From Planctomycetales bacterium (GTDB lineage Bacteria; 4484-113; JAFGCY01): a stretch of 32,000 nucleotides of DNA. The position numbers were made by a program, and so were the translations under genes. The notes beneath the pieces are model-generated. The model did not search any database. It was not told the DNA's origin and worked only from the letters and a program-made list of their open reading frames with translations. Positions 408-29,363 of the stretch are shown piece by piece; the first letter of the stretch is position 1, and each line of letters begins with the position of its first letter. The DNA lies in the NCBI GenBank assembly GCA_022646745.1, contig CP060262.1, forward strand, positions 1,320,001 through 1,352,000. The letters run 5' to 3'.

Positions 408-1985
408 ATGCTGCAATCGGACAGGCGCAGGCTGCTCAAGAGGCTCGGGGTCGGATGGCTCTGCCTCGTCTGCCTGCTGGCAATCACTGCCGCCGTGCAG
501 CGCCAGCGTGAACTGACCGGTGTTGAGCGCACGCTGATCGAGAGCCGCTACCGTCACTTCGGGGAGATCGGCCGCCATGCCCGTGAGGAATGGCCGACCT
601 ACCGCCACTCCTACGCGCTTTATCTGATTGAGAACGGCCGCCGCAAGCCGGAGCTATTGCGCCTGATGCTGATCAGCGAGGCCTGCGTCGTCAAGCATGA
701 CAGCTACATGAACCGCTACAGCATGAACCTCGACCTGCGCCGGATGCTGATGCGCGAGGTGTTGCCTGCCAACCGTGATGACGCGCTGGTGCACTGGGCC
801 GCCGGGGTCTGCCTGATGAATGCCAGCCAGTTCGGCGAGGCTGCGGATGAACTGAAGCGCTCGCTGGAACTCGGGCTGGACCTGGACCGCTTCGGCATCG
901 AGAAACGCGACATACTGCTGCGCATCATGCTGGCAGCGGCGATGGATGGTGACCCTGCCGAGACAATGCAATGGGTGCGTGAAACGCAACTTGGCGAGGA
1001 CCATGCCCTGAACATGATCTATGCGGACCTGCTGTGCCGCCTGTACCTGTATGGTGACTGCATTGACTTCCTGGCGGATGCCGCAGATCCAGCCGACCTC
1101 TCCTGGGTGATCAATGATCCGCTGGCCCCCCAGCCTGCGGGAATGGCAATAGCCAGGCAGTCCAGAGGTGGCCGGATCTACCTGCGTGCGCTCTGGTACG
1201 ACGGGCACTACGGGGAGTTCGGTGAGTTCATGGAGCAGTTTGGCAGCGCTTTGCAGTCAGGCAATCCCATGGTGGAACTGATCACGCAATCAAGTCCCGG
1301 CTGGTTCGGTGGTGTCTATGAAGACGGAGCGGCATTCATGCCGACGATCCGGGCGTCACTGCTGGATGGCAGTCCGCCGGGAAGCGTGGACCAGCTGTTC
1401 TCCGAAACGAACGAGATCAGCATCCGCCACCGCCTGATGGGACTGGCTGAGGGCTATGCCCTGCTCGGCAGGATTGATTGCCACGACCGGCTTGCTGACT
1501 TGCTGGCCAGCGGCAAGCAGCGCCTGGCGGACGGAGCCTACGGCATGCCAAACGAACTGGACTGGTCCGAGCGCAACCAGCTGCAGCAGCTCACCGGCCG
1601 GGCCTACGGACAGCTGTTGCGCGCGGAGGTGCTGCGCCATGACTGGACTGCGGTGCAGCAGCTGATGGATGACAACGAGGACCTTTACTTCTGGCCGACC
1701 CCGCTTGCAATCAGCAGCGCCGGCTTCCTGCTCGGCATCGTCAACGGTGCGGAGGTCGCCGAACTGGCCTCCACACTGGATGGCTGCATCGAGGCCGCGC
1801 CCTTCCTGCTGCATTCGCCGGAGTACTTAGCTGCCTGCGCTGAAGGCGGGCAGGACCCGGACGAGTTGCGTCGTGCACTCGTCAAGGAGCTTTCCCGACC
1901 CAATGACCCGGACGACGGCTGGTACGGTGGCAACGCAGCCTACTGGGACAGTGCCAACGGTGAACTGGACTGGGGCAGCGTCTAA
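408..1985 (+). CDS. hypothetical membrane-anchored protein (N-terminal TM/signal anchor, helical repeat-like body)
   Basis: 525-aa ORF with a basic N-terminus followed by a hydrophobic stretch (RRRLLKRLGVGWLCLVCLLAITAAV). Codon composition matches the window. No motif I can name and no clear SD, so the start is uncertain. Its stop TAA (1983-1985) overlaps the stop of the convergent PL1 gene. Confidence 0.6.
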   Translation: MLQSDRRRLLKRLGVGWLCLVCLLAITAAVQRQRELTGVERTLIESRYRHFGEIGRHAREEWPTYRHSYALYLIENGRRKPELLRLMLISEACVVKHDSYMNRYSMNLDLRRMLMREVLPANRDDALVHWAAGVCLMNASQFGEAADELKRSLELGLDLDRFGIEKRDILLRIMLAAAMDGDPAETMQWVRETQLGEDHALNMIYADLLCRLYLYGDCIDFLADAADPADLSWVINDPLAPQPAGMAIARQSRGGRIYLRALWYDGHYGEFGEFMEQFGSALQSGNPMVELITQSSPGWFGGVYEDGAAFMPTIRASLLDGSPPGSVDQLFSETNEISIRHRLMGLAEGYALLGRIDCHDRLADLLASGKQRLADGAYGMPNELDWSERNQLQQLTGRAYGQLLRAEVLRHDWTAVQQLMDDNEDLYFWPTPLAISSAGFLLGIVNGAEVAELASTLDGCIEAAPFLLHSPEYLAACAEGGQDPDELRRALVKELSRPNDPDDGWYGGNAAYWDSANGELDWGSV

Positions 1986-3640
1986 GGCATCGGCAGCGGC
2001 GGTACCTGCGGTGCAATCGTGCCGAAGATAATCTGCCCGTCGTCCGTCCGGCGGTAGAACACGGCGGGATTGCCATTCAATTCGAAGAGCACGGGGCTGC
2101 CGAAACCACCGGCATTGCCATTAAGCTGCACATCCTGCCAGCCAAGCGGTTCCTGTGGCTGGGGTGTGCCGCAATCAGCCAGTTGCAGCTTGCCGCCAAA
2201 GGCATCCACTCCCAGCAGCAGCAGCCGGCTGCCAACCAGCTCCATCCGCGGGTAGCTGAGCTCGCCCGGCTCTATCAGAGCGCCTTCACTCCAGTCCGCG
2301 GCCAGCTCGCCGCCGCTGGTCGAAGCCCGAACATATCGCCCATAGGAAAGTGAGACCAATAGATCGTCGTCAGCGGCATGGAAGCCGATCACCGGAGAGC
2401 CGGCGAAGAAGCGCAGGGTGGGCATGGCCTGCATGGCCTCCAGGTCATCCGCTGCCACCACTGCCTGTTCGGGCCAGTCGTGTGACAGGACCCCGTCAAC
2501 GGAACTGCTGCGCATGTACAGTACCTGGCTGCTGAGCAGGGGCTGCTGCGGATTGCTCAGGTACCAGGCCACAGCCGGGTTGCCATCCACGATGCTAAGC
2601 GAGGGGCAGCCCAGCACATAGCCCGGCCCGAGGACTGCGAGAGCTGCCTTCTTGTCCCAGTCGTCATCCGTCCCGCCCTCCGCACTGAGGCTGCGGACAT
2701 ACAGCAGGTCAGCCTGCTCGCCAATGAAGCAGATCGCCGGCTTGCCATCCACCTCAGCCAGTGAATGCAGCGGGGCATGGTCCGTGAAGGAGGCCACATT
2801 GACCGATTTGCCCCAGCCGTCCGTTCCATCCGCTATGCCGCAGCGCACGTAACGCAGCTTCTTGTCATTGCCACTATGGTAACTGAGGGCCGGGTTGCCA
2901 CCGATCAGTGCCATGTCCAGCCACTCGCCCCCAGCAGCCTCCTCCAGCACGGTTGGCTCACCCCAGTCAGACTGGCCGAATCCATTGCCGTCCGCGCGCA
3001 GAAAGGCCGTACTGCCATTGTCATCAAGGAACGCCAGCGCGGGATTGCCTGCAACCTCAAGTGCGGCCATCCGGCTGTATCCGCCGCTGCTGAGCGCCAC
3101 ACCGGTCTCATTGAACTGCCAGCCATTCTCATGGCTGAGCTCGAAGCCGTCGATGTATGCACTGTTGCCGGGTGCTGCCAGCAGCGCGATATAGAGCTGC
3201 TCCGTGCCGGAGTACATCAGCTTGCTCGGCTGCAGGTCCATCACGTCGTCAGTGTGCGGGCCGCTGAATAGCCAGCGTCCAGTCTCGTAATCCGGCAGCG
3301 CCAGCCACAGCCCTTCACCGCTGGCATTGTCGATCTTCACGTTGATTCCCGTGATTTCACTGGAGTGCAGGCTCAGTTCATAGATCGCCCACTCCGATGC
3401 AGCAGCGGAGTCAAGCAGCAGGGTCGAACCGTCATCCGTGGCACCCGGCGAGCGCAGGTAGGTCTGATTGCCACGAACAGGCAGGGTCTGCAGCACCATG
3501 CTGCCCCTGAGGACATCCAGCGCGGGCAGCGTATTGCCGCCAGCCGCCGGACCATGCACGGCCGGCCTGCCGTCACCGGTAGCGCTGCAGCCATACAGCA
3601 GCACAGCACCAAGCAGCCAGAGGATTGTCATTTTCCGCAT
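1982..3640 (-). CDS. PL1: propeller lipoprotein (N-terminal RW-signature domain + Asp-box-like beta-propeller)
   Basis: AGGAG lies 8 nt upstream of ATG 3640. Lipoprotein signal MRKMTILWLLGAVLLYG|C. N-domain signature LALPDYETGRWLF. Blade strands EVAGNPALAF, LIGGNPALSY, EVDGKPAICF, IVDGNPAVAW, ELNGNPAVFY, with interspersed D-x-x-G-x-x-W-type turns (IADGTDGWGK, EGGTDDDWDK). Only 32 nt downstream of PL2, so probably one operon. Confidence 0.85.
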   Translation of the reverse strand: MRKMTILWLLGAVLLYGCSATGDGRPAVHGPAAGGNTLPALDVLRGSMVLQTLPVRGNQTYLRSPGATDDGSTLLLDSAAASEWAIYELSLHSSEITGINVKIDNASGEGLWLALPDYETGRWLFSGPHTDDVMDLQPSKLMYSGTEQLYIALLAAPGNSAYIDGFELSHENGWQFNETGVALSSGGYSRMAALEVAGNPALAFLDDNGSTAFLRADGNGFGQSDWGEPTVLEEAAGGEWLDMALIGGNPALSYHSGNDKKLRYVRCGIADGTDGWGKSVNVASFTDHAPLHSLAEVDGKPAICFIGEQADLLYVRSLSAEGGTDDDWDKKAALAVLGPGYVLGCPSLSIVDGNPAVAWYLSNPQQPLLSSQVLYMRSSSVDGVLSHDWPEQAVVAADDLEAMQAMPTLRFFAGSPVIGFHAADDDLLVSLSYGRYVRASTSGGELAADWSEGALIEPGELSYPRMELVGSRLLLLGVDAFGGKLQLADCGTPQPQEPLGWQDVQLNGNAGGFGSPVLFELNGNPAVFYRRTDDGQIIFGTIAPQVPPLPMP

Positions 3641-3672
3641 GTCTTGTACTCCTGGATTGTCCCGGCGGACAG

Positions 3673-5334
3673 TTACTGCTTTGCCTGCTTGAAGCTGAAG
3701 TCACGCGCATAACGCAGCTTTCCGTCGCCTGTCACGTAGAAGAAGGCCGGGCAATCGTCCACGGCGAGCATGTCGCATGCCAGTACACTGGGGGAACCGG
3801 GCAGTGGATACTCAGGGTATCCATAGATGAATGGTGAATTCGGCAACTCCCGTTGCACTCTGACGTCCAGGCTGTCGGTGGCGTCCCTGGAATATGCAAT
3901 TGCGATGTAGTCACCGAGACCGATCCCTGACAGCAGGCCGCTTCCCGGGCTGAGGCTATAGAACAATGACGTTGTCAGGCTCCAGTCCTGGTCCTCGTTC
4001 CCGTTTCCACCCTGGATCTGGCGGAAGCGCAGGTTCGGGTCCGTGTTGCTGGCACTGTCAGCGTGCATAAGATACATGGTCGGCTTGCTGTTGAGCGACA
4101 GCAGGTCTGCCCAGCTGTGTTCCAGCAGGTCTCCTTCGGTGACCACGGCGGGCTGGGCCGGCCATGCACTGAGCTTGTCACCGGAGGCTGTATCCGCTGC
4201 CATGAACAGCTGGCGGCCGTTCTGCTTGTCATAGAAGCTGACTGCCGGCTTTCCGCGGATCACCTGCAGGCTCGGGTTCAGCGCGCTGACACCGCCCCCG
4301 GAGTGGATCACCAGAGCGGCCTGCCAGTCAGCTGCCAGGTTGCCATCCGGACTGCTGCTGTGCCGGTATGTCAGGTTCAGGTCGGGCGACAGGTAGGCAA
4401 GCGCCGGCGTGCCGTCCACCTGCGCAAGGGAGCATTCCGGCACGTGGTCCAGCGGGGCATTGTCGATCTTCACCGGGCTCGGCCAGTCCGTTGTGAGCGC
4501 ACCCTCGGGGCTGCCGCAGCGGACGTAGCGCAGTTCCGCTGAGTTGTCATCATGGTAGGCGATCGCCGGGTTACCGTTGATTATCCGCATGTCAATCCAC
4601 TGACCGCTGGCAGTGGCGTCAACGAGCACCGGCGTGCCCCAGTCCCCGGGCTGCATTCCGTCGGCCGTTGCCGCGCGGAGATAACTCAGGCCGTTGGCAT
4701 CAAAGAATGCCACCGCCGGATGCCCAGCGACTTCAATCGCGCCGAGTGGTGACTGCACGATGTAGGACGGCAGCTCAATCCCGGTTTCAGCGCTATCCCA
4801 GCCATTGTCAAGCATGGTGCTGACCCCCTGGATGCTGAGGTAGCCATTACCCTCCGCCAGCAGGCAGATGTAGGTGCTGCCCTTTGCACTGCGCTGGGCC
4901 GGAGTTACCTGCACTTCCTCCATGCTGGCAGGGGCGGGCTGGAACTGCCAGCGGCCCGTCTGGAAGTCAGCAATCCCGAGGTACAGGTCGATGTCCGTGT
5001 TTTCGGTGTAATTGATGGAGAATGAGTCAACCGTGCTGCCATCCTCCGTCAGTTGCCAGATGGTCCAGCTGTTGTTCTGGCTGTCAGGGATCAGGTCCAC
5101 ATCAAACGTGATCAAATAGATGGAGGCGTTCGCGGACTTCTCCACCACTGAGGCCCCGTCTTTGTACTGGTTGTACAGGGATCCTGCATGGCGCAGCGGG
5201 GCCGCAGGACCGGATGCGTCAAGCTGGCCGGGTGCAGGCAGGAGAACTGTTTCCAGGGGCAAGGTCCGTGCGCCGCAGGCGCACAGCGAAACCGCAAGCA
5301 GCGTGGGCAGCCAGTATGGGATCGTTCGATTCAT
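3673..5334 (-). CDS. PL2: propeller lipoprotein, paralogue of PL1
   Basis: The ORF track starts at GTG 5337. ATG 5334 is preferred because GAGGA lies 6 nt upstream. Signal MNRTIPYWLPTLLAVSLCA|C. N-domain LGIADFQTGRWQF. Blades EVAGHPAVAF, IINGNPAIAYHDDNSAELRYVRCG, QVDGTPALAY, VIRGKPAVSF. Turns ATADGMQPGDWGTP, SSPDGNLAADW. Confidence 0.85.
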   Translation of the reverse strand: MNRTIPYWLPTLLAVSLCACGARTLPLETVLLPAPGQLDASGPAAPLRHAGSLYNQYKDGASVVEKSANASIYLITFDVDLIPDSQNNSWTIWQLTEDGSTVDSFSINYTENTDIDLYLGIADFQTGRWQFQPAPASMEEVQVTPAQRSAKGSTYICLLAEGNGYLSIQGVSTMLDNGWDSAETGIELPSYIVQSPLGAIEVAGHPAVAFFDANGLSYLRAATADGMQPGDWGTPVLVDATASGQWIDMRIINGNPAIAYHDDNSAELRYVRCGSPEGALTTDWPSPVKIDNAPLDHVPECSLAQVDGTPALAYLSPDLNLTYRHSSSPDGNLAADWQAALVIHSGGGVSALNPSLQVIRGKPAVSFYDKQNGRQLFMAADTASGDKLSAWPAQPAVVTEGDLLEHSWADLLSLNSKPTMYLMHADSASNTDPNLRFRQIQGGNGNEDQDWSLTTSLFYSLSPGSGLLSGIGLGDYIAIAYSRDATDSLDVRVQRELPNSPFIYGYPEYPLPGSPSVLACDMLAVDDCPAFFYVTGDGKLRYARDFSFKQAKQ

Positions 5335-5582
5335 CACCGGTCCTCAGGGGTCGGGTCGCTCCAGGGTGCGCTACTTCTACCCCGCTTGATTATCCCCGTG
5401 TATGGTTGGATGCCGGCATACACTTCTGCGTGATTTTGGCAATACACAGTACACCTGCAGCTGTATTGCCGAAATGCCCTTCAGGTGTACTGTCAACACT
5501 AGGCGGGTCCGGGCATAAGGGATGGTCGGGAGCAGTCCCGATACATCACTCCCGTGACTCTTTCGCGGGGAAGGACCATCCT

Positions 5583-6029
5583 ATGTACCGTTCCATTGCC
5601 AACATGGCCTGCCTGCTGGCGGCGATCCTGCTGACTGCCTGTGGTACGGCCAGTCCTGCAGCCGGAACAGGCCGTGAGGCTGCTGCATCCTATGAGCATG
5701 TGACAGGCAAGGCCTGGTCAGACTACTGGGGCATGGTGGCCCAGTCCTATGCCGTGGTGGAATTCGAGGATCTGCAAAGCGGAACCGTCTACAGCACCAC
5801 CGCTGACGGGATGGGGGACTGGGAGTTGCGGTTGCCCGCCGGGGACTACGAGTTCCGCGTTGTGAAGGGCATCTACCTGATGGACCCGCCGGCCGGCGAG
5901 GCGATTGACAAGCTGCCCACCAAGCTGCGCCTGAAGAACGGGCTGGTGTACTTCCTCGGGTATAACCCGCCGCAGTATCCCTACGGTTTCGTTGTACAGC
6001 AGCCGATCACCACGGCGCAGGATTACTGA
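5583..6029 (+). CDS. small lipoprotein with carboxypeptidase-regulatory-like beta-sandwich motif
   Basis: GGGGAAGGA lies 7 nt upstream of ATG 5583. Signal MYRSIANMACLLAAILLTA|C. The stretch GTVYSTTADGMGDWELRLPAGDYEFRVVKG resembles the CarboxypepD_reg-type sandwich. The listed ORF start at 5214 is an upstream extension with no signal peptide logic. Confidence 0.75.
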   Translation: MYRSIANMACLLAAILLTACGTASPAAGTGREAAASYEHVTGKAWSDYWGMVAQSYAVVEFEDLQSGTVYSTTADGMGDWELRLPAGDYEFRVVKGIYLMDPPAGEAIDKLPTKLRLKNGLVYFLGYNPPQYPYGFVVQQPITTAQDY

Positions 6030-6086
6030 GCTATCCCATCCGATCCGGGGCCGGAGCATGCCCAGCGCTCCGGTCCCGCTTCCGCA

Positions 6087-8330
6087 TCATTCGTACCAGC
6101 AGCAGTTCAGTGTCTGGCTGCTGCCGTCGTAGTACACCACGGTCAGGTTTCCATCAGCACCGGACATCCGCGGTGCATTCGCGATCCCGTCCCCGTAGGC
6201 AACAAGTTGTGGAGCATCCCAGCTGTCGCCACTGGAAGTGGAACGGACGACGGCCACCCCGCCCCTGGCAATGTCGTAATAGCAGATGTAGAAATGGTTG
6301 CCTGAATAGAACTGCGGGTTGTCGCCAGCCAGGTCGCCGATCTGTGATGCTGCCACGCTCCAGTCAGTCGCATCCTGGTTCTGTGCCTTTGCTCCCAGCA
6401 ACGGCCAGCCGAAGGGCTGGCCATAGACGAGGAGCGGCACGCTGCCGTTGAATGCGAGGTCGCTGCCGGAAATCTGCACTTCACTGACTGCTACGGGGTC
6501 CAGCCAGCTGCCGAGGAACAGGTTTGTCGTGCGCAGCAGTTGCTGTTGCCTCACACCGGCCTGCTGGCTGTCAACCAGCATCGCCGCGCTCAGTCCACTG
6601 GCCGGGTTCCAGTTGCCGCAGTCCAGTTCGTAGATCGAGTCGCCGGCCGGCAGGGCCAGCGCCGTCACCGCAGCTTCCCAGCCAGTGGCGTCATTGTCAG
6701 TCGCCGCGTAGCAGACCGCGCTCATCGGCTGGCCGAAGTTCCACTGGTTGACGATGCCGCCGATGTACAGGATGTTGTCAACGGCACCGATCTCCGCCAG
6801 ACGGACGTTCTCGCTGCCGCTGACCTTGTCGCTGGCATCCCACAGTTCGCCGGTGTCCGTGAAGGAGCGTACGATGTGGATTTCGAAAGCCAGTGTATCG
6901 GTGTTCATCCTGTCATAGGCGATGCGGAACAGCGAGCCATGGCGCACGATGTCAAGCCGGGCCTTGTTGTCATAACTGATATCCTGTCCGACGGGGTAGC
7001 GGCGGTTGTTCCAGGCTGAGCCTTCCGTGTTGGCGGAGAGCCTGAACACCAGGTCATTGCTGCTGCCGTCAAAGTAGGCCAGCCCGATCCGTGCAGCGCT
7101 GCCGGCACCGATCCGCGCCAGGTCGGGCTCGCCCTTCAGGTTCAGTCCGCTTTCGATCACGGCGCTGCGCCAGCCGGCGGTCACCTCGATCGGGGCGCTG
7201 ATATAGTTCTCGGCGAGGTTGTTGTCAACCACGGTCAGCTCAACCGTATTGAAGCCGTACTGGTCGAAGTTCCACTGCACGGATTCGTCAGTGCTGGTCA
7301 CCACGTCCGGTTCACCGTCATCCGTGAAGTCCCAGCGGTACTCAATGATTTCACCGTCAAGGTCCGAGCTGCCGGATGGGTCGAAACTGACAGTCAGCGG
7401 TGCCACGCCGGAAATCACGTCACTGATGAAGGAGGCAACCGGCGGACTGTTTTCAGGGTCGATGATCAGGAAGTCCAGGCTGACCGTGTCGCTGTTGCCT
7501 TCCGTGTCATTCACGCGCACAACCGCCGAGTAATTGCCCGGCCCATACAGGTGACTCTCGATGCCATCCGCGTCCCCGATTTCCTCATATGTACCGTCGC
7601 CATCGAAATCGAAATCGTAGCCGGCGATCGGATGCACCAGTACCTCACTGAAGCTGGCATCGAAGGTCACGGTCAGCGGGCCGATGTTCATGGTCGGGTC
7701 CTCGTCCAGGTCAGTCCGCGCATACAGGTACGGCGGCGGTTCACCAATGACGAGGGTGTTCAGTCCGTGGAATTCCGTACCGGTCAGCAGAACCAGCACA
7801 TTCACGGAGCCGAAGCCGTCCTTCAGCTCCGCCAGTTCGCCGATGTCAACGCTGCGCCCGGTCATCGCATGCCATTCCCAGCGACCGCTGCTGAAGTTGG
7901 CAACGGCGACGAAGCAGCTGCCGGGTTCCGGCCCGCTGTCCAGCCAGTTGAGTGTCAGTGGCACGTTTCCCCCCAGCTCCGGCGGGGTGTAGAACCGGTA
8001 CGCCGAATAGGCCGGCTGGAACAATCCCATTTCCGGATCGTAGTTCGGGGTGAAGGTGCCACCCAGCACATTCCGCGCCGGAATGATGGAGGACGAAACG
8101 GATGATGTGATCCAGTAGCCGGCGTAATCCGCGGGCTCACTGGCCTGGCGCTGCAGTTCCGATATGGCCGGCAGCTCGGGCATGCCCTGCAGTGCCGGCT
8201 CGTTCAGGGGCGGGCTGTCCAGCACCACCGGTCCGTTTGAGCCCTGAATTTCGCTGTCTTTTCCTGATCCGCAGGAAACTGCAATCAGGAGCAGGCTGGC
8301 AAGCAACCAGGGGAGGGCGTGTCTGTGCAT
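6087..8330 (-). CDS. PL3: propeller lipoprotein with two inserted PKD domains
   Basis: GAGGA lies 7 nt upstream of ATG 8330. Signal MHRHALPWLLASLLLIAVS|C. N-domain FVAVANFSSGRWEW. Two PKD units, then a degenerate propeller (RIGLAYFDGSSNDLVFRLSANTEGSAWN, STSSGDSWDAPQ, LTVVYYDGSSQTL). Confidence 0.85.
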   Translation of the reverse strand: MHRHALPWLLASLLLIAVSCGSGKDSEIQGSNGPVVLDSPPLNEPALQGMPELPAISELQRQASEPADYAGYWITSSVSSSIIPARNVLGGTFTPNYDPEMGLFQPAYSAYRFYTPPELGGNVPLTLNWLDSGPEPGSCFVAVANFSSGRWEWHAMTGRSVDIGELAELKDGFGSVNVLVLLTGTEFHGLNTLVIGEPPPYLYARTDLDEDPTMNIGPLTVTFDASFSEVLVHPIAGYDFDFDGDGTYEEIGDADGIESHLYGPGNYSAVVRVNDTEGNSDTVSLDFLIIDPENSPPVASFISDVISGVAPLTVSFDPSGSSDLDGEIIEYRWDFTDDGEPDVVTSTDESVQWNFDQYGFNTVELTVVDNNLAENYISAPIEVTAGWRSAVIESGLNLKGEPDLARIGAGSAARIGLAYFDGSSNDLVFRLSANTEGSAWNNRRYPVGQDISYDNKARLDIVRHGSLFRIAYDRMNTDTLAFEIHIVRSFTDTGELWDASDKVSGSENVRLAEIGAVDNILYIGGIVNQWNFGQPMSAVCYAATDNDATGWEAAVTALALPAGDSIYELDCGNWNPASGLSAAMLVDSQQAGVRQQQLLRTTNLFLGSWLDPVAVSEVQISGSDLAFNGSVPLLVYGQPFGWPLLGAKAQNQDATDWSVAASQIGDLAGDNPQFYSGNHFYICYYDIARGGVAVVRSTSSGDSWDAPQLVAYGDGIANAPRMSGADGNLTVVYYDGSSQTLNCCWYE
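7179..7724 (-). other. tandem PKD domains inside PL3
   Basis: PLTVTFDASFSE...YDFDFDGDGTYE...YSAVVRVNDTEGNSDT and APLTVSFDPSGSSDLDGEIIEYRWDFTDDGEPD...NTVELTVVDNNLA carry the classic PKD hallmarks (P-L-x-V-x-F-D, W-D-F-x-D-G, V-x-D). Coordinates were converted from aa 203-384. Confidence 0.8.
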
Positions 8331-9127: not shown

Positions 9128-9155
9128 AGTATAACGAAAAATGAGGAAAAAGCAA
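9128..9155 (-). promoter_or_regulatory. sigma70-like promoter, TTGCTT-N16-TATACT, 6 nt before the alkB ATG (leaderless-type)
   Basis: The minus strand reads TTGCTT (9155-9150), a 16-nt AT-rich spacer, TATACT (9133-9128), aaacat, then ATG. There is no Shine-Dalgarno sequence. Confidence 0.35.
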
Positions 9156-9188
9156 GGGAGTAAGGAGCGCCGATCGCCGGATCGGCCT

Positions 9189-9328
9189 GGAGCGCGAAGC
9201 TCCCGCTTCGCAGGACCGCGGGCATCCTGCCCGCCTGGCTCGCGACTCTGGACTCGGGACTCGGGTTTACGGCCCACGGTTCACGGCTCACGGGTTTCCG
9301 GGAAGGAGCGCGAACCTCCAGTTCGCAG
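9189..9328. repeat. two copies of a GGAGCGCGAA-S-CTCC-N-TTCGCAG double-hairpin motif flanking a degenerate heptamer array
   Basis: Copy 1 is 9189-9213 (ggagcgcgaaGctcccgCttcgcag) and copy 2 is 9305-9328 (ggagcgcgaaCctccaGttcgcag). The G/C swap is compensated on the other arm. The region 9251-9292 holds six 7-nt units: gactcgg gactcgg gtttacg gcccacg gttcacg gctcacg. Confidence 0.6.
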
Positions 9329-9385
9329 ACATGCGAGCCTTATGCTCGCGCAACGCTGTTGCAGGTCCGGCCGGGCAGTGCGGAC

Positions 9386-9517
9386 GGGCCTGTCGGGAAA
9401 AGTTACCGATGGCAGCAGGCGGAGCTGCTGCCCTAACATGTGCCCCAGCGGCGCAGAATTCATTGGTGGCTCCGAATTCATTCGGCGATTGATTCCGCTA
9501 ATGAATTCGCGGCCACC
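9386..9517. repeat. direct repeat copy A (left flank of AT-rich cassette)
   Basis: ...cgggaaaagttaccgatGGCAGCAGgcggagCTGCTGCCctaacatgtgcc...ccgaattcattcggcgattgattccgctaatgaattcgcggccacc aligns with 10304-10415. Copy A has an extra internal agaattcattggtggct duplication. It contains a perfect 8-bp hairpin (9411-9418 with 9425-9432) and the palindrome ccgaattcattcgg. Confidence 0.75.
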
Positions 9518-9540
9518 CAGAAGAGCAGTCTTCTGTTGAG

Positions 9541-9624
9541 CATGGACGGATTGATCCCAATCAGAGTGGCTTGACTTGGGAGCAGTTGATCGTCCTTTTG
9601 CGAGATGCAACATGCTACGAGTAG
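9541..9624 (+). pseudogene. C-terminal relic of a paralogue of the 9800-10102 gene
   Basis: In frame it reads ...HGRIDPNQSGLTWEQLIVLLRDATCYE*, against ...ANGIINQNAEGLTWDQLMKLLRYATEYE* in the intact gene. That is 12 of the last 18 residues identical, with the stop at the same position. Upstream, the frame runs into repeat copy A and a stop at 9502-9504, so there is no N-terminal part. Confidence 0.6.
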
Positions 9625-9799
9625 TATCGAGTTCTTGCCATGAATGGCCAGTGTTATGAAAATACTGTTGTTAAGGGCATACCAGGCTGGAAAAATATCT
9701 TGGGTGCTACAGTATTGAAAGAGTTGTCAATTTTCCTGTCCATACGATCCGAAGAACGAGTAATGCTTGAAATCGTTCATGTGAAAGGAGGTGAATTCC

Positions 9800-10102
9800 A
9801 TGAATTCTCTGAAGGATTACTTTGAAAGGGGAGATGAATCGAGTCTGGAATTCAGACGATTCCTGTTAACACTTATAGAGGAAGCTCGCAATGGGTTTAT
9901 CCATAAAGGAATAAACTCTGAGACTGGTGAAGAATATGAAACTCGATGGGAGAATGACAGTATCGAGGGTTTATTAAGTGCAATCGGAAGGCTGTTGGTT
10001 GCGGATTCTGAGTTTGCAAATGGAATTATTAATCAAAACGCTGAAGGCCTGACTTGGGATCAATTGATGAAGTTACTTAGGTACGCGACAGAGTACGAAT
10101 AG
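9800..10102 (+). CDS. small acidic hypothetical protein of the 'WEN...YE-COOH' type (possibly an immunity-like DUF family)
   Basis: AAAGGAGGTG lies 6 nt upstream of ATG 9800; the track lists GTG 9791. About 38-40% GC in hand-counted lines. The motifs RWENDSIEGLLSAIGRLL and a C-terminal ...W..L..LL..A..YE resemble a small-protein family I recall as DUF7660-like. That recollection is not verified. Confidence 0.6.
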   Translation: MNSLKDYFERGDESSLEFRRFLLTLIEEARNGFIHKGINSETGEEYETRWENDSIEGLLSAIGRLLVADSEFANGIINQNAEGLTWDQLMKLLRYATEYE

Positions 10103-10303
10103 TAATTTCTGCGCTCAATACTAAGCGTAACTTGAGCTTACGGCAGTCCCGGCATTGGTGGAACTTCTCATACGGCTAAACCCATACTTCCAGGCAGCGC
10201 TGGAGGAGTTCAGCTTGGACCAGTCCCTTTATGACAGTTTCAGCCTGAGTGGCAACATTAACAAGTGGTCAGACCCCTGAACTCCGGCGATTGCCTACGC
10301 CAA

Positions 10304-10415
10304 GGCCCGCCGGGAAATGTTGCCAATGGCAGCAGGCGGAGCTGCTGCCCTACCATGTGCCTCGGCGGCGCCGAATTCATTCGGCGATAGATTCCGCGAT
10401 TAAATTCGCGGCTAC
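10304..10415. repeat. direct repeat copy B (right flank of AT-rich cassette)
   Basis: ...ccgggaaatgttgccaatGGCAGCAGgcggagCTGCTGCCctaccatgtgcc...ccgaattcattcggcgatagattccgcgattaaattcgcggctacc, in the same orientation as copy A. The hairpin is 10328-10335 with 10342-10349. Confidence 0.75.
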
Positions 10416-10463
10416 CTTGTAAGGCCGGAGGCCGCGCAGCACGCCATAGGCGGGGAAAGAGAT

Positions 10464-10574
10464 GGCAGAACGCAGACAGCAGAGAGCAGACCACTCTGCC
10501 CGGTGCCTCGAGTCTGCCAATTGCACCGAGCCTATTTTATTAGCGAGTCCGCTTTCTGCTATCTGCTTTCTTCC
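10464..10574 (-). terminator. long imperfect purine-rich/pyrimidine-rich hairpin 3' of the hydrolase-cupin gene (terminator-like, no U-tract)
   Basis: Arm ggcagaacgcagacagcagagagcagac (10464-10491) faces arm gctttctgctatctgctttcttcc (10551-10574). The element is homologous to the one at 26319-26388 (shared AGCAGATAGCAGA-R-AGC on the minus strand). Confidence 0.4.
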
Positions 10575-10596
10575 CGCTTCCCCGGTCCCTGAAAAC

Positions 10597-12099
10597 TCAG
10601 TTCCTGAGGTACTGCTCGTCCGTGACATGCTCCAGCCAGTCCACCGCCTTGCCGTCCAGCGCTTCCTGGATCGCGATGTGGCTCATCGCTTCCGTGGCCG
10701 ATGCGCCGTGCCAGTGCTTCTCCTGCGGTGCGAAGCGCACCACGTCACCCGGCCTGACAATCTCAATCGGCCCGCCTTCACGCTGCACCCAGCCGGTGCC
10801 TTCCGTGATGATCAGGGTCTGGCCCAGCGGATGGGTATGCCATGCGGTGCGAGCGCCGGCGCTGAAGCTCACGTTGGCAGCACCGAGGCGCGAGGGCAGC
10901 TCGGTCGTTGCCAGCATTTCAATCTTCACCTCACCGCTGAACCAGTCGGCGGGACCATCCATTTCGCCACGTGATTCGGCGCGACTGATCGCCATGCCCC
11001 GGTTGGCGGCCAGGTACCTGCTGAAGAATGCCTCCAGCTTGTCAAACGGGATCATGTCCAGCCTGTCGTACAGGTCGATGTGCCGCGCACCGGGCACCAC
11101 ATACAGCTCCTTCGGCTCAGCCGCCAGCTCGTAGGCGTCCTCGGTGAAGTAGCGCGAGTGCGCATTCTCACCCATGATGAACAGGATCGGTCGCGGTGAG
11201 ATGCTCGCGAGGTCGCTGTTCAGCCGGAAGTTCGTGAAGGCCATGCTGCTGACCTGTGTGAAGGCCGCGATCGCGCGGGGATGGTGTCCGCGCTGCATGG
11301 CGTAGTACTCGAAGAACTCACTTGTGATCGGGTCCAGGCCCGGCGGGATGCTGCCGGCCGGCTCATTCGGGAAGGCCGGTGTCAGTGCCGGAGTGCCGGC
11401 TTCGAAGTCCTCCCAGCGCTGGTAGGCCAGCTGCCTGAGGTTCTGTGCGCGCTGCGCATCCGTCATCGAATCCATCCAGCCCTTGCGGATCATGTGGCTC
11501 ATGTCGTACATGCTGGCCGTTGCCACCGCCTTGATGCGCGGGTCCACCTGCGCCGCCGTCAGCGCGAAGGCGCCGCTGCCGCAGATGCCGATCACGCCGA
11601 TGCGCTCGCGGTCCACGAAGGGCCGCGTGCCGAGGAAGTCCACACCCGCGCTGAAGTCCTCCACGAAGATGTCCGGGGAGGAGACGCGCCGCGGCGTACC
11701 GCCGCTCTCGCCGTTGTAGGACTCGTCGAAGGCGATCGCAATGAAGCCGCGCTCCGCCATCGCCTGGGCGTAGATACCCGCGCCCTGCTCCTTGACGCCG
11801 CCGTAGGGCGTGCCCACGATCAGCGCGGCGTAGCTGCCGGAGCCGTCAAAGTCGGCGGGCTTGTACATGTCCGCCGCGATCGTGATCCCATAGCGATTGG
11901 GGTAACTCACCTTTTCGTGGATCACCTTCTCGCTGAGCGGGAAGGTCTTGTCCCATGTCGTGTTCAGTGTCGTAGTCATTGTGTTTACCTCCGTCCTGCT
12001 TCTGTTGTCCGCCTCGGCTTCGAAGGGACTGGCTGCTGCAATCGTCGCAGCAATTGTCAGTGTCGTGGCTGTTGCCAGGATTCCTTTCTGCGCTGTCAT
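10597..12099 (-). CDS. secreted alpha/beta-hydrolase (dienelactone-hydrolase-like, Cys nucleophile elbow) fused to a C-terminal cupin domain
   Basis: GGAGG lies 6 nt upstream of ATG 12099; the track start at 12117 adds 6 aa. Signal-like N-terminus MTAQKGILATATTLTIAATIAAASPFEAEA. Nucleophile elbow GVIGICGSGAF. C-terminal cupin motifs are GARTAWHTHPLGQTLIITEG and GDVVRFAPQEKHWHGA. Confidence 0.8.
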   Translation of the reverse strand: MTAQKGILATATTLTIAATIAAASPFEAEADNRSRTEVNTMTTTLNTTWDKTFPLSEKVIHEKVSYPNRYGITIAADMYKPADFDGSGSYAALIVGTPYGGVKEQGAGIYAQAMAERGFIAIAFDESYNGESGGTPRRVSSPDIFVEDFSAGVDFLGTRPFVDRERIGVIGICGSGAFALTAAQVDPRIKAVATASMYDMSHMIRKGWMDSMTDAQRAQNLRQLAYQRWEDFEAGTPALTPAFPNEPAGSIPPGLDPITSEFFEYYAMQRGHHPRAIAAFTQVSSMAFTNFRLNSDLASISPRPILFIMGENAHSRYFTEDAYELAAEPKELYVVPGARHIDLYDRLDMIPFDKLEAFFSRYLAANRGMAISRAESRGEMDGPADWFSGEVKIEMLATTELPSRLGAANVSFSAGARTAWHTHPLGQTLIITEGTGWVQREGGPIEIVRPGDVVRFAPQEKHWHGASATEAMSHIAIQEALDGKAVDWLEHVTDEQYLRN

Positions 12100-12120
12100 T
12101 TCATGCCTCCAGTGCATGCG

Positions 12121-17376: not shown

Positions 17377-19113
17377 TCAGTGCAGGGTGTCCACCGTCAT
17401 CAGCAGGCGGTTGCCGCTCACGTACAGCATGTGCCGCGTGGGCCCGAGGTCCAGAAGCGGGCAGTGGATGTCCAGCAGGTCATAGCAGCTGATCTGCTCC
17501 GGCTTGCTCCAGCTGGTGGTGCCGCCATCCGCGCCGTGCACCAGCACGTTGCGGTGGAAGCGCCACTGCTGGATGGCAACCTGCGGCACTCCCTCATACA
17601 CGTACATGCCCTGCGGCCGCGCCCCGCCATCCACCCCGAGGAAGGTCTGGCTGATGGACTGCGGCACGGACCAGGTCTCTCCGGCGCTGCTTGTCGCGGC
17701 GGAGTACAGCGTGTTGTCACCGCCGCTGCCATCGTATGTGACCGCCGGCAGTCCGTTGTACTCGACCAGGTACTGCTGCGTACCCTGGCCCATCGCGCCA
17801 TCCACCAGGTTGGCAAAGTTCCACTCGCTGCCGCTCGAATCCTTCGCGCGCACGTAGTACAGCTTGTCACCCTCGAAGTTGCGGATCAGCGTCGCCGGGT
17901 TGCCGTCGATGATCGCCAGCGGGGTCATTGCATCCGCGTTGCCATTCGCGCCGACCGACGCCAGTGAGATCGGCTCCGGCCAGGCCATGCCCTCCGGGTC
18001 ACTGGCGCGCACATAGTTCGCGCTGCGGAAGCCGCCGATGAAGCTGATCTCCAGCCCGAACAGGATCGCCGGGTTGCCGTTGACAACCTTCAGCACCGGG
18101 TCATGCCCGCTGTCCTCCAGCGCGTCGACGATCTCCGTGTCATCCCACACACTGCCGTTCTGGTCCATGCTGCGGATGTACTTCAGCTTGCCGGTGCCAT
18201 GCCCCTCGCCATCCTGCTGCGGGTCCTGGAAGGCGACCGCCGGCTTGCCGTTCACCTCGGCCATCGACACCCCGCCAACGTCATCGATGGAGGTCAGCAC
18301 CACCGGAAAGCCCCACTGGCTGCCAAGTACATTCAGGCTGCGGGAGTACTTCATGTCGAACTTGCCCGGCACATCCCCCGGCTCCAGATAGACCACGGCC
18401 GGATTGCCATTCACCAGCGCCGCGTCATAGCTGTGCTTCGCCTGCGGCGGGTCAGCCGTGAACTGGTACACATCGGACGCTTTCCAGGGCACGCCCAGCC
18501 CGACGCTGCCCAGCCCGGCCTCGTCATCCCCGAGGTACAGCACCAGCATGTAGGCCTGGCCAGCCGGCCCGGCATACTGCTCGAGTCCCGGCAGCTCCAC
18601 GAATTCAGGCTGCTGCGGCCGGTACCAGTCCCAGCGGTTCGTGTCGAAGTTGCCCAGTCCCACGAACAGCAGGTCCTGCCGTTGCGGCACCTTGTGCCAG
18701 CCCATGCTGGCGCAGGGCAGCTGCGGCAGTTCGCTCATGTCAAGCAGGAAGGTGGCATATGCCATGTCGCCGCCCTGCCGGGTATTGAACCAGTCACTGT
18801 TCATCCTGAGGAAGTGGTTCAGCTCATCGATGCTGACATTGCGGTTCGGCAGCTCGGTGTCGTAGTCGTCAAAGTAGGCCGGTGCTTCCCGGTGGCTGGA
18901 GCTGGCCAGCCTGGTGCCATTGCTCCGCGCTGCCAGTTCCAGCGGGGCGGGCAGTTCCAGTCCGTTTGCTGCCGACAGGCCAGTGTCATCCGGCAGCGAA
19001 GCGCCAGCCTGCTGCGGCATCGCATCGACGGGAGGTGCATCTGTGCCCTGTCCGGCGCAGGCGCAGGACAGGATGGCAATCAGCAGGCAGGCCAGGTGGT
19101 TGTGCAGGCGCAT
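17377..19113 (-). CDS. PL4: propeller lipoprotein
   Basis: GGAG lies 7 nt upstream of ATG 19113. Signal MRLHNHLACLLIAILS|C. N-domain FVGLGNFDTNRWDW. Blades VNGNPAVVY, EVNGKPAVAF, VVNGNPAILF, IIDGNPATLI, EYNGLPAVTY, YEGVPQVAI. Turns SMDQNGSVWDD, ASDPEGMAWPE, AKDSSGSEWNF, SSAGETWSV, GADGGTTSWSK. Confidence 0.88.
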   Translation of the reverse strand: MRLHNHLACLLIAILSCACAGQGTDAPPVDAMPQQAGASLPDDTGLSAANGLELPAPLELAARSNGTRLASSSHREAPAYFDDYDTELPNRNVSIDELNHFLRMNSDWFNTRQGGDMAYATFLLDMSELPQLPCASMGWHKVPQRQDLLFVGLGNFDTNRWDWYRPQQPEFVELPGLEQYAGPAGQAYMLVLYLGDDEAGLGSVGLGVPWKASDVYQFTADPPQAKHSYDAALVNGNPAVVYLEPGDVPGKFDMKYSRSLNVLGSQWGFPVVLTSIDDVGGVSMAEVNGKPAVAFQDPQQDGEGHGTGKLKYIRSMDQNGSVWDDTEIVDALEDSGHDPVLKVVNGNPAILFGLEISFIGGFRSANYVRASDPEGMAWPEPISLASVGANGNADAMTPLAIIDGNPATLIRNFEGDKLYYVRAKDSSGSEWNFANLVDGAMGQGTQQYLVEYNGLPAVTYDGSGGDNTLYSAATSSAGETWSVPQSISQTFLGVDGGARPQGMYVYEGVPQVAIQQWRFHRNVLVHGADGGTTSWSKPEQISCYDLLDIHCPLLDLGPTRHMLYVSGNRLLMTVDTLH

Positions 19114-19237: not shown

Positions 19238-20971
19238 TTACTCCAGCTGGCTGAAGATCAGCTGGCCTCCGCTGACATACAGGAAGGAAGGCACGCCGCC
19301 CAGCTCCAGCATGTCACTCTGGCCACTGAATTCCTGCGTGTTGCAGACATGCTCCGGCGCGCCCCAGCTCGTGCCGCCGGCGTCGTCCGAGCGCACGAAT
19401 ACGAGGCGGTTGGCATTGTACTGGTCCACCAGCACCGCCGGCTTGCCGTCCAGCATCACCAGCCCGCGCGGCTGTGACCCGGGATCATCGACGAAGTCGC
19501 TCTGATAGACCAGCACCGGGTCGTTCCAGCTGCCGCCATCGGCATCCTGCGCCAGACGCCAGTAGGTGTTGTCCGTGTTGTCAGTGTCGTACACCATCGC
19601 CGGCAGGCCACCCACGTCCATCAGGTACAGGCTGAAGCCGGAGCGCTGGGGCACGAAGAACGGGGTGCCGGATCCCCAGGCGGTCCCGTTGGCATCGGTG
19701 GCACGGATGTAGCCGACGGTCTCCTGGTTCAGGCCGGACTGGTAGGCGATTGCCGGAAAACCGTCAATCACGGCCAGCGGTGAGTTGTAGATCCCGTAGC
19801 CGCCGCTCACCGGACCCTTCACCGTGACCGGGCTGTTCCAGCTGCTGCCGTCCGCGGCACTGGCCTGTACGTACATCAGGCCCTTGCTGAATCCGTCAAG
19901 GTCCTCATTCGCGTAGGAGACTGCCGGCATACCGTTGACAATCGTCATGTATGGTGAGATTCCGTGGTTGTCTCCCATGCCGTCGTCAATCGTCATGCTG
20001 CTGCCCCAGGCAGTGCCCTGCGGGTCAGCCGAGCGGACGAACCTGAGTGAACCGTGGGCCACGAAGCCGTCGCCGGGGTTCACATATTCGAATTCCTGCC
20101 AGGCTATCGCCGGATTTCCATCAACAATGGCCAGGGAGATGTACGGCATGAACTCAGCGGGTCCCAGCACGTCGATCGCCGCGCCCCAGGCATTGCCGGC
20201 GCTGTCCAGCGCACGGGCGAACTTGACCGTGAACATTTCCGCGGCGAAGTCCTCCGCAATCCAGGCGATGGCCGGCTTGCCATCCGCCAGCACCAGTTCA
20301 ATGTCCTGGTCCAGCTGGATCTCGTCGAACTCGCCGTAATCCACCACCGGGCTTGTGCTCCACTCGCTGCCGACGCTCACGCTGCCGAGCTGCAGGGTGT
20401 TCGGGCCGCTCTGCAGCACCAGAACAAGCATCCGGCTGGCGGCATCAGTGTACGGATCAAGGGAGGAAAGCTCGGCAACCTTGGCGGAATTGAACCATTC
20501 CCAGCGATTGCTGTCAAAGTTGGCAACTGCGAAATAGGCCATGCCCTCATACGGACCGGCGACCCAGTCCACCCGCACCCGCGGCAGCGGGCTGAGCCCG
20601 GACAGGTCGAAGCTGAACATCGCGAAACCGAGGTCGGCCGGGTCATGGCTGCTTGACCAGCCCCCGGGGATGTACAGCGTGTCCTCGCCGAACAGGCTGA
20701 ATACACCCTGGCTGGGCAGGCTGGCGTCATAGTCCCTGCCGAGGAGCAGGGCGAAGTCACCGGCCGCACTGGACTGTCGTGATGGTCCGGCGCCAGCGGG
20801 CAGCGCCAACGGGTCCGGCAGGCCAGGTATGAACTGCGGGGCTCCAGGGCTGTCATCAGCCTGCAGATTGACCACCGCATCAGGCATAGGCTGTGGGGAC
20901 TGCTGGCCTCCACAGGCACTGAGCGCGATCATCGAAATCAGCAAGGGAAGAATCCTGGCAATCCTGGGCAT
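19238..20971 (-). CDS. PL5: propeller lipoprotein (7 recognisable blades)
   Basis: GGAGAG lies 4 nt upstream of ATG 20971. Classic lipobox MPRIARILPLLISMIALSA|C. N-domain YFAVANFDSNRWEW. G-x-P-A strands occur at aa 231, 285, 347, 404, 455, 509 and 559, spaced 50-62 aa apart. Turns SADPQGTAWGS, SAADGSSWNS, ATDANGTAWGS, AQDADGGSWND, SDDAGGTSWGA. Confidence 0.9.
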   Translation of the reverse strand: MPRIARILPLLISMIALSACGGQQSPQPMPDAVVNLQADDSPGAPQFIPGLPDPLALPAGAGPSRQSSAAGDFALLLGRDYDASLPSQGVFSLFGEDTLYIPGGWSSSHDPADLGFAMFSFDLSGLSPLPRVRVDWVAGPYEGMAYFAVANFDSNRWEWFNSAKVAELSSLDPYTDAASRMLVLVLQSGPNTLQLGSVSVGSEWSTSPVVDYGEFDEIQLDQDIELVLADGKPAIAWIAEDFAAEMFTVKFARALDSAGNAWGAAIDVLGPAEFMPYISLAIVDGNPAIAWQEFEYVNPGDGFVAHGSLRFVRSADPQGTAWGSSMTIDDGMGDNHGISPYMTIVNGMPAVSYANEDLDGFSKGLMYVQASAADGSSWNSPVTVKGPVSGGYGIYNSPLAVIDGFPAIAYQSGLNQETVGYIRATDANGTAWGSGTPFFVPQRSGFSLYLMDVGGLPAMVYDTDNTDNTYWRLAQDADGGSWNDPVLVYQSDFVDDPGSQPRGLVMLDGKPAVLVDQYNANRLVFVRSDDAGGTSWGAPEHVCNTQEFSGQSDMLELGGVPSFLYVSGGQLIFSQLE

Positions 20972-21771: not shown

Positions 21772-21797
21772 AAAGCCTGCTCCACGGAGCAGGCTTT
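21772..21797. terminator. bidirectional intrinsic terminator between convergent genes
   Basis: aaagcctgctc-cacg-gagcaggcttt is a perfect 11-bp stem. It is flanked by gaaaag on the left and tttaccttt on the right, which gives T-runs in both orientations. It overlaps the TAA (21796-21798) of the cohesin-like gene. Confidence 0.55.
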
Positions 21798-24623: not shown

Positions 24624-24739
24624 GTCCGTCTCCCGTCTCGTCAGTCCTCGACATTCCAACTGGCTGGTCTGCTCTCTGCTCTCTGCCAACGCATTCTCCT
24701 TCTGCTTCTCATTCTGCCAACTGCCTACTGCCCACTCGC

Positions 24740-29248: not shown

Positions 29249-29321
29249 GTTCATCTCTCCGTCTGGCGGGCCTGTTTGGCCCACTTCCACCCGTGCGGTC
29301 TGTGCGCCGCCGGGCAACCGA

Positions 29322-29363
29322 CTGTCATACCCATTATCCACATCAGGTTAAGCAATGGTTAAA
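29322..29363 (-). promoter_or_regulatory. conserved 42-bp upstream module (PL6 copy): TTTAACC-ATTGC-TTAACC-N7-GATAAT-GGGTAT
   Basis: 39/42 identical to 31412-31453. The minus strand reads TTTAACCATTGCTTAACCtGaTGTGGATAATGGGTATgACAG. This gives a direct TTAACC repeat spaced 11 bp centre to centre. GATAAT lies 18 nt after the first TTAACC, which is sigma70-like geometry. Confidence 0.5.

Follow-up and report, generated by a model that had tools for sequence, protein, structure and literature searches.

A lipoprotein built around a β-propeller is the plan of both BamB and Ycf48. Seven-bladed propellers also occur as the PLL/PHL lectins of Photorhabdus, which bind sugars between their blades (PMC6943638). 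Here we analyzed a 32-kb stretch of DNA from a Planctomycetales bacterium (GenBank assembly GCA_022646745.1, contig CP060262.1, positions 1,320,001 to 1,352,000; the whole of this stretch is hereafter called the window), in which seven large open reading frames (ORFs), designated PL1 to PL7 and all located on the minus strand, encode propeller proteins with predicted lipid anchors; two small ORFs beside them are designated S1 and S2. PL1 to PL5 are predicted to be modular envelope lipoproteins that join a known fold class, the propeller, to a new sequence family, an N-terminal domain called the RW domain (N-domain).

As the preliminary description of this DNA had proposed, PL1 to PL5 follow a common plan of lipobox, N-domain and propeller, the two domains being detected by hidden Markov models (HMMs). 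The signal peptide of each, of the SPII type, ends in a lipobox cysteine (LYGC, LCAC, AVSC, SCAC and LSAC in PL1 to PL5, respectively), and the pattern [LVI][ASTVI][GAS]C following a signal peptide was found in PL1 to PL7, S1 and S2, all of which are predicted to be lipidated. PL1 (positions 1982 to 3640, 552 aa, lipobox Cys18) contains the N-domain at aa 40 to 174 (nt 3119 to 3523) and a seven-bladed propeller at about aa 179 to 552 (nt 1985 to 3106). PL2 (3673 to 5337, 554 aa), located 32 bp upstream of PL1 on the same strand, has its N-domain at aa 44 to 180 (nt 4798 to 5208) and seven blades at about aa 189 to 554 (nt 3676 to 4773). In PL3 (6087 to 8330, 747 aa), the N-domain (aa 57 to 200, nt 7731 to 8162) is separated by two PKD domains (about aa 205 to 385, nt 7176 to 7718) from a degenerate propeller (about aa 386 to 747, nt 6090 to 7175). 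PL4 (17377 to 19113, 578 aa) combines an N-domain at aa 63 to 210 (nt 18484 to 18927) with seven blades at aa 211 to 578 (nt 17380 to 18483), and PL5 (19238 to 20971, 577 aa), the protein used for modelling, has a disordered linker (aa 21 to 59), an N-domain (aa 60 to 204, nt 20360 to 20794) and seven blades (aa 205 to 577, nt 19241 to 20359). All-against-all BLASTP linked PL1 with PL2 (4e-53, 33% identity) and PL4 with PL5 (2e-76, 30% identity), which form two old tandem pairs; cross-pairs among PL1 to PL5 scored 1e-8 to 1e-14, and weaker links of 1e-8 to 1e-15 connected all seven proteins. This paralogy is far beyond chance. The seven genes together occupy about 14.0 kb, slightly more than the 13.5 kb given previously. 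They can be called seven paralogues with respect to the propeller, which is common to all of them, but not with respect to the N-domain: its HMM gave no match in PL6 or PL7. The possibility that a divergent RW domain was hidden in these two proteins was rejected, since hhalign returned only chance-level comparisons (probability below 1%; E values of 0.097 and 0.32).

The short signatures that had been picked out by eye in PL1 to PL5, including the tryptophan of a GRW or NRW motif, fell into one alignment column, and this tryptophan was the sole invariant residue of the N-domain in alignments of 12, 38, 68 and 100 sequences. Neither the five window copies nor a 38-sequence profile matched any Pfam or NCBIfam entry at E≤1, and comparison with PDB sequences at E≤10 returned only chance-level matches (best E values 0.43, for PL5, and 0.83) and none for PL1. 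The N-domain, about 140 aa long, thus belongs to a previously undescribed sequence family, in agreement with its initial designation as uncharacterised. When 1.84 billion representative proteins were searched exhaustively with HMMER, it was detected in 1,874 clusters (at 50% identity) at E≤1e-3, and in 767 at E≤1e-10.

In all of the 150 best matches the domain started between about residue 4 and residue 115, in host proteins usually of 500 to 1,200 aa. A lipobox was recognized by regular expression in 106 of the 146 best new representatives, many of the others being truncated at the N-terminus, and a lipobox-like motif preceded the N-domain in 59 of 62 ORFs from related metagenome-assembled genomes (MAGs). 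The linker between the cysteine and the domain had a median length of 36 aa and was rich in Ala, Pro, Gly and Ser; in the AlphaFold model of PL5, its predicted local distance difference test (pLDDT) score was below 50. No acidic export motif was found after the lipobox cysteine of the N-domain lipoproteins. The N-domain was present in one copy per protein, always nearest the membrane. By contrast with this fixed position, the region downstream of it varied: Pfam annotation of 68 proteins revealed PKD domains in 45, PQQ-like/BamB-like propellers in 7, papain-type proteases (Peptidase_C1) in 7, PPC in 6, SBBP propellers in 5 and lambda-carrageenase-type (CGLA) propellers in 5, among others, while a BNR-like propeller followed the N-domain in 30 of 146 representatives and 25 of 66 locus ORFs. 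Because its cargo is so varied, the RW domain is best described as a promiscuous N-terminal lipoprotein module that is not private to the propeller family, which revises the earlier view that tied it to propeller proteins. We also observed many N-domain lipoproteins of about 700 aa that consist of the N-domain, PKD and a C-terminal region of about 400 aa with no Pfam match (loci L002–L072, representatives P0121–P0266); they make up another large class of the lineage's lipoproteins, one whose cargo is likewise uncharacterised.

To describe the fold of the N-domain we used AlphaFold2, which predicted a β-sandwich (jelly roll) of 9 to 10 strands (pLDDT 82.9; predicted template modelling score, pTM, 0.82). 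In this model the shared signature forms a β-hairpin, [FY]-x-[AG]-[LV]-A-N-[FW] / x-x-[NDG]-R-W-[DE]-W-[FY]. Foldseek matched the model only to generic galactose-binding-domain-like jelly rolls (template modelling score, TM, 0.5 to 0.59; about 10% identity; probability about 1), namely Cry toxin domain III, the carbohydrate-binding modules (CBMs) CBM6 and CBM36, the Eph ligand-binding domain, the PNGase C-terminal domain and a baseplate protein of phage phi812. The viral fold library BFVD likewise contained only generic jelly-roll tail-fibre and receptor-binding proteins of phages as matches. For CBM6 and CBM36, TM was 0.44 to 0.51 and no sequence match was found.

A single propeller HMM matched PL1 to PL7 (about 1e-96 to 1e-34; 4e-96 for PL5 and 5e-14 for PL3). 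Each protein contains seven G-x-P-A anchors about 50 to 60 aa apart, with a mean blade-to-blade identity of 24 to 30% and the blade consensus S-L-x-V-[VI]-N-G-x-P-A-[IV]-[AS]-[YW] ... L-x-Y-[VI]-R-A-x-D-x-x-G-x-x-W-G-x-P. For full-length PL5, AlphaFold2 was given an alignment of 78 sequences and returned a model (mean pLDDT 85, pTM 0.82) with seven four-stranded blades, confirming that the repeats are predicted to fold as a propeller and narrowing the earlier estimate of six or seven blades to seven; in the model the first strand after the N-domain completes the last blade in a velcro closure. Foldseek searches of the PDB ranked the seven-bladed Photorhabdus PLL/PHL lectins first (TM 0.72 to 0.78 when normalised to the lectin; 10 to 14% identity), followed by BT3686 of glycoside hydrolase family 145 (GH145; TM 0.60 to 0.65) and, last, by the sialidases NanB, NanC, Neu2 and KDNase together with GH93 (TM 0.3 to 0.57). 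At the sequence level no PDB chain matched the propeller, even in a profile search, PLL-family chains included, and the propellers of PL1 to PL7 had no Pfam or NCBIfam match at E≤1. PL5 homologues scored 26.6 to 33.0 bits against PF13088 (BNR_2), whose gathering threshold is 31.4, and only one of them (P0017) lay above it; none of PL1 to PL7 reached the threshold. The propeller is therefore a distant relative of BNR_2 rather than a Pfam member of it, a structurally unsolved branch of the sialidase/BNR clan that is carried by exported proteins of several phyla.

The initial suggestion of a sialidase/BNR-like fold devoid of a catalytic motif agreed with these borderline scores and with the motif content of the proteins. 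A FRIP-type motif ([FYWLVI]R[IVL]P) was found in no PL protein, and [FY]R[IV]P in only 2 of 120 homologues. The classic Asp box, S-x-D-x-G-x-T-W, was also missing from every PL protein: among the 120 homologues, the D-x-x-G-x-x-W turn occurred 752 times and the classic box once. The turn in the form first proposed, [SA]-x-D-x-x-G-x-x-W, held for PL4, PL5 and the wider family but not for PL1 and PL2, which have a longer variant. The six blades of GH33 were not found, both the anchors and the model giving seven. All propeller columns that were at least 70% conserved among the 78 aligned sequences recurred at the same position in each blade, and a 12-sequence full-length alignment contained only two invariant residues outside the repeats, the lipobox cysteine and the N-domain tryptophan.

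The canonical topology of propeller blades places the A-B and C-D connections on one face and those from B to C and from D to A on the opposite one. In PL5, the A-B turn always has 2 residues (top-residue frequency 0.76) and the C-D turn always 11 (0.59), and both are conserved, whereas the B-C loops range from 2 to 6 residues (0.21; occupancy 0.61) and the D-A loops, which are variable, from 4 to 13 (0.29). This pattern suggests a conserved scaffold with one variable face and would be more in keeping with a binding module than with an enzyme that has one asymmetric active site. Searches with PL5 detected 238 homologues, most of which covered the propeller only. Many are Bacteroidota proteins of 900 to 1000 aa with a sorting domain of the type IX secretion system (T9SS); others are Chloroflexi proteins with SLH domains and Verrucomicrobia proteins with H-type lectin domains, and a few are annotated as "sialidase family protein" or "exo-alpha-sialidase".

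The distribution of the N-domain was different. We scanned one genome per species, 185,579 species in all, for the hairpin with a degenerate DNA motif estimated to match about 18% of the family. Copy numbers per MAG are lower bounds. The scan returned 71 loci, of which the HMM confirmed 48, all in seven related MAGs; the remaining 23, mostly in Actinobacteria and otherwise in scattered MAGs of other phyla, lacked an HMM-confirmed domain and were dismissed as chance matches. Distinct N-domain ORFs numbered at least 18 each in JADZFO (SJ870) and CAZEJB, at least 12 in JAGRNR ("UBP7 HKST-UBA01"), at least 8 in JAWLAZ (AC1.30), at least 7 in JAGRNT ("UBP7 HKST-UBA03"), at least 2 in CAYXMN and at least 1 in CAZSSB; two or three of them often shared a single 8-kb locus. 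The lineage-specific expansion announced by the preliminary description was thus borne out for the N-domain, which was confirmed only in these related MAGs, but not for the propeller, which has hundreds of homologues in Bacteroidota, Chloroflexi and Verrucomicrobia and is not lineage-specific. The window was 95 to 98% identical in DNA to JAGRNR010000018, and therefore the window and HKST-UBA01 belong to the same species. HKST-UBA01 contained at least 8 additional N-domain ORFs outside the window region, two of them with a propeller, so the expansion extends beyond the window.

PL4, PL5 and S2 were syntenic in AC1.30, at 82 to 90% amino-acid identity. For GuaA, which is encoded in the window, the relatives at 70% identity or more included one partial match labelled Boseongicola sp., and the next matches, from mixed phyla, were at most 64% identical. 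Three "UBP7" MAGs, the source of the submitter's label, were recovered from saline activated sludge (PMC8495973). We could not confirm this label, which corresponds to no NCBI taxon; the figures listed for GTDB UBP7 (PMC11382960) do not fit a lineage with 62% G+C, the approximate value over the 32 kb of the window.

To analyze selection we compared the window with AC1.30 in a single pairwise comparison (Nei-Gojobori). For PL5, dN/dS was 0.165 over the whole gene, 0.10 in the N-domain, 0.14 in the propeller and 0.44 in the signal peptide and linker; the corresponding values for PL4 were 0.247, 0.18, 0.235 and 0.37, and S2 as a whole gave 0.15. PL4, PL5 and S2 are genuine constrained genes, and the N-domain is the most constrained part of PL4 and PL5 between orthologues. 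Within the propeller, the loops did not evolve faster than the strands (0.11 vs 0.16), and this one pairwise comparison of orthologues gave no sign of diversifying selection.

From these results we infer a function for the propeller lipoproteins and their N-domain. We give a probability of roughly one half to the reading that PL1 to PL5 are tethered binding lipoproteins of the envelope, in which the N-domain is a common membrane-proximal docking, anchoring or sorting module. In these proteins, the lipobox is followed by a flexible tether of about 36 aa, the N-domain with its predicted jelly-roll fold, optional PKD spacers and a regular seven-bladed propeller. The propeller would act as a non-catalytic scaffold, lectin-like or otherwise binding a ligand or protein: the fixed-length A-B and C-D turns would hold the fold, the variable B-C and D-A loops on the opposite face would provide paralogue-specific binding surfaces, and the ligand would be bound through this variable face or in pockets between blades, with specificity differing among paralogues. 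Four observations would make a glycan the most plausible ligand: the clan to which the propeller belongs, a best fold match that is lectin-like, fusions to H-type lectin domains, and export signals on homologues in other phyla. The N-domain would be a module shared across the lineage's lipoprotein repertoire for docking, anchoring or sorting, rather than a CBM that binds a substrate; we propose this because it is membrane-proximal and single-copy, precedes unrelated cargo including proteases, and shows the strongest constraint. The dockerin-type repeats that PL6 and PL7 carry at the equivalent position (see below) would fit a docking logic by analogy. More tentatively, the RW domain may be the recognition and anchoring module of a lineage-specific system of lipoprotein surface display, in a deep-branching lineage, that docks dozens of cargo proteins per cell, among them binding propellers, proteases and PKD stalks, on a common envelope receptor or export machine; by the same tentative analogy, such a system would be a functional counterpart, with an unrelated fold, of T9SS C-terminal domains, SLH domains or Slam-dependent export.

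Several observations weigh against tethered binding lipoproteins with a docking module. An enzymatic role is kept open by the borderline BNR_2 scores, the "sialidase family" names and the NanB, NanC, GH145 and GH93 fold matches, and register slips in alignments of repeat proteins can mask a non-periodic active site. The predicted CBM-like fold of the N-domain would also be expected of a glycan-binding module, and the lipoproteins may face either the periplasm or the cell surface. Finally, no partner gene was conserved near N-domain genes: clustering of ORFs over the 48 loci yielded mostly antisense artefacts and S2-like genes.

PL1 to PL5 could alternatively be surface sialidase-type glycoside hydrolases, in which a catalytic propeller is directed to its substrate by the N-domain acting as a CBM, much as CBM40 is combined with GH33 in pneumococcal NanB and NanC. 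Such an enzyme would account for the homologues that score near or above the BNR_2 cut-off or are named sialidase, for the Foldseek matches to NanB, NanC, Neu2, KDNase, GH145 BT3686 and GH93, and for the resemblance of the N-domain to the CBM6 and CBM36 jelly rolls, but it is at odds with the lack of FRIP/RIP and classic Asp-box motifs in every PL protein, with seven blades in place of six and with the absence of any conserved non-periodic residue from the 78- and 12-sequence alignments. Moreover, TM was lower for sialidases (0.3 to 0.55) than for lectin propellers (0.72 to 0.78), and the N-domain also occurs on proteases and PQQ-like propellers, always membrane-proximal and single-copy. We consider an enzyme of this type unlikely. 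A CBM-like role for the N-domain could also be envisaged apart from catalysis, the domain binding a glycan or cell-wall polymer and holding proteins on the cell's own envelope polymer, or on a substrate, with no part in sorting. Its predicted galactose-binding-domain-like jelly roll, shared with CBM6, CBM36 and phage receptor-binding proteins, and the invariant or conserved aromatic residues of the W-x-W hairpin are consistent with this role; a TM of only 0.5 to 0.6 at about 10% identity, the lack of a match to any CBM family by sequence, and a strictly N-terminal single copy joined to non-glycosidase cargo, which is atypical of substrate-targeting CBMs, argue against it. On the whole we regard this role as possible but doubtful, and in its self-envelope-anchor version it partly overlaps with the docking module proposed above.

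It is also conceivable that these proteins are periplasmic housekeeping scaffolds, which would mediate protein-protein interactions in envelope biogenesis as BamB and Ycf48 do and have no part in surface or nutrient binding. The lipoprotein-propeller plan of BamB and Ycf48, the PQQ_2 "BamB-like" propellers of some N-domain proteins, the housekeeping genes interleaved with the PL genes and the purifying selection on them are all compatible with such a scaffold. However, at least 1 to 18 N-domain lipoproteins per genome (12 to 18 in the three richest MAGs), with papain-like proteases among their cargo, would not be expected of it, and the gene content adjoining the locus varies between strains. 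In addition, the propeller homologues of other phyla are extracellular, as judged from their T9SS and SLH export or anchor signals and lectin fusions. A housekeeping scaffold is thus quite unlikely, and tethered envelope binding lipoproteins with a common docking module remain our preferred reading.

We also analyzed the genes surrounding PL1 to PL5. S1 (5583 to 6029, plus strand) encodes a 148-aa small lipoprotein (lipobox LTAC) divergent from PL2; its weak match to a CarboxypepD_reg-like β-sandwich was under the Pfam cut-off, and elsewhere it was found only in the same species. S2 (21171 to 21707, plus strand), divergent from PL5, encodes a 178-aa small lipoprotein with an Ig-like domain (Big_7, 1e-06). 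The preliminary description had presented each as a small β-sandwich lipoprotein gene divergently paired with a PL gene. Both proved to be real lipoproteins, and in AC1.30 the S2 orthologue is divergent from the PL5 orthologue, as in the window, but S1 and S2 are unrelated to each other, and the S2-like genes that lie beside N-domain genes in SJ870 and CAZEJB are on the same strand as them. One additional N-domain locus was flanked by housekeeping genes. Considering that these genomes are dense in lipoprotein genes, the association of S2-like genes with N-domain genes is suggestive at most. Past position 21803 of the window, next to PL5 and S2, the HKST-UBA01 contig diverges (window 21796 to 23022 vs L002 5909 to 7547): it contains a 546-aa ORF with a BNR-like propeller and no N-domain that is not present in the window, where an unrelated 408-aa lipoprotein is found. 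This divergence reflects either a difference in gene content between strains or a mis-assembly of the MAG.

PL6 (26396 to 29341, minus strand) encodes a lipoprotein of up to 981 aa with one PKD domain and a propeller from about aa 594 to at least 907, and PL7 (29387 to 31378, minus strand) a 663-aa lipoprotein with a propeller at about aa 270 to 658. Their N-terminal halves are unlike those of PL1 to PL5 and include a segment of about 150 aa with dockerin-type Ca-binding repeats. The same segment occurs in the products of 23259 to 24689 and 24740 to 26209, two paralogous minus-strand lipoprotein genes (BLAST down to 6e-22). Dockerin_1 was matched at 1.6e-14 in ORF 23259–24689 and marginally in PL7 (aa 178 to 228) and ORF 24740–26209. 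Pfam and PDB sequence searches detected no cohesin and did not support a cohesin-like domain that had been suspected by eye in PL6, PL7 and the ORF at 21796.

About 12 of the approximately 20 genes of the window encode lipobox proteins (PL1 to PL7, S1, S2 and the ORFs at 21796, 23259 and 24740), an unusually high density. The remaining genes include those for GuaA, a Zn-dependent alcohol dehydrogenase, an AraC regulator, a hydrolase-cupin fusion and a 2OG-Fe(II) oxygenase. The fusion (10597 to 12117, minus strand, 506 aa) joins an α/β-hydrolase of the dienelactone hydrolase type to a C-terminal cupin and adjoins the alcohol dehydrogenase gene and the divergent gene for the AraC-family regulator. 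A 525-aa ORF on the plus strand (408 to 1985) with a hydrophobic N-terminal segment and no Pfam match converges on PL1, their stop regions sharing 4 bp. Scans of the window for Rfam families and tRNAs were both empty. The low-G+C (about 0.55) segment of 1.46 kb at 9135 to 10595, which has no Pfam-bearing ORF, Rfam match or tRNA, is replaced by an unrelated 529 bp in the otherwise 95%-identical HKST-UBA01 contig (L055 5668 to 6196) and appears to be a strain-variable insertion or replacement.

The RW domain adds a family of 1,874 clusters, described in no database, that organises the lipoprotein repertoire of an uncultured lineage left unclassified by NCBI, and if it does act in docking or sorting, it would represent an undescribed route of protein display on the bacterial envelope. 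The seven-bladed propeller with the D-x-x-G-x-x-W turn constitutes a large, definable subfamily that is common on secreted proteins of Bacteroidota and Chloroflexi, some of them mis-named "sialidase". Both modules could become Pfam-style families and improve the annotation of wastewater and marine metagenomes.

Compared with described systems, the PL propellers share with the BNR_2/sialidase clan (PF13088; GH33 NanB, NanC and Neu2) four-stranded blades whose C-D turn contains a conserved Asp and ends in Trp, PF13088 scores that are weak or borderline in homologues, and fold matches; NanB and NanC also have an N-terminal β-sandwich ahead of the propeller. They differ from the clan in having seven blades rather than six and a D-x-x-G-x-x-W turn one residue longer than the Asp box, in lacking FRIP and non-periodic catalytic residues, and in having no Pfam match at E≤1. 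The blades of GH145 are not regular repeats. GH145 BT3686 (PDB 5muk, 5mul and 5mvh) nevertheless has seven blades, a TM of 0.60 to 0.65 and a surface or periplasmic setting in glycan utilisation, but no sequence similarity to the PL propeller. The PLL/PHL lectins (PDB 5c9l, 6rfz and 8q83) were the best structural match, over the whole lectin (TM 0.72 to 0.78), and likewise consist of seven similar blades; their multivalent sites between blades offer a model for regular propellers (PMC6943638, PMC5584973). Unlike the PL proteins, to which they are 10 to 14% identical with no sequence match, the PLLs are soluble proteins that lack both the lipid anchor and the N-domain.

For the N-domain itself, the galactose-binding-domain-like jelly rolls of CBM6, CBM36, Cry domain III and Eph resemble the predicted sandwich of 9 to 10 strands but are only about 10% identical to it, and no Pfam or PDB sequence match was obtained even with the 38-sequence profile. 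The closest parallel in organization is with SLH domains, the T9SS C-terminal domain and dockerin. SLH and T9SS modules are used by the homologous propellers of other phyla, and dockerin-type repeats occupy the N-terminal position in PL6 and PL7. These modules have no sequence or fold relationship to the N-domain, which is N-terminal and follows a lipid anchor; the likeness is one of logic, namely that a single terminal module is carried by many unrelated extracellular cargo proteins within a lineage.

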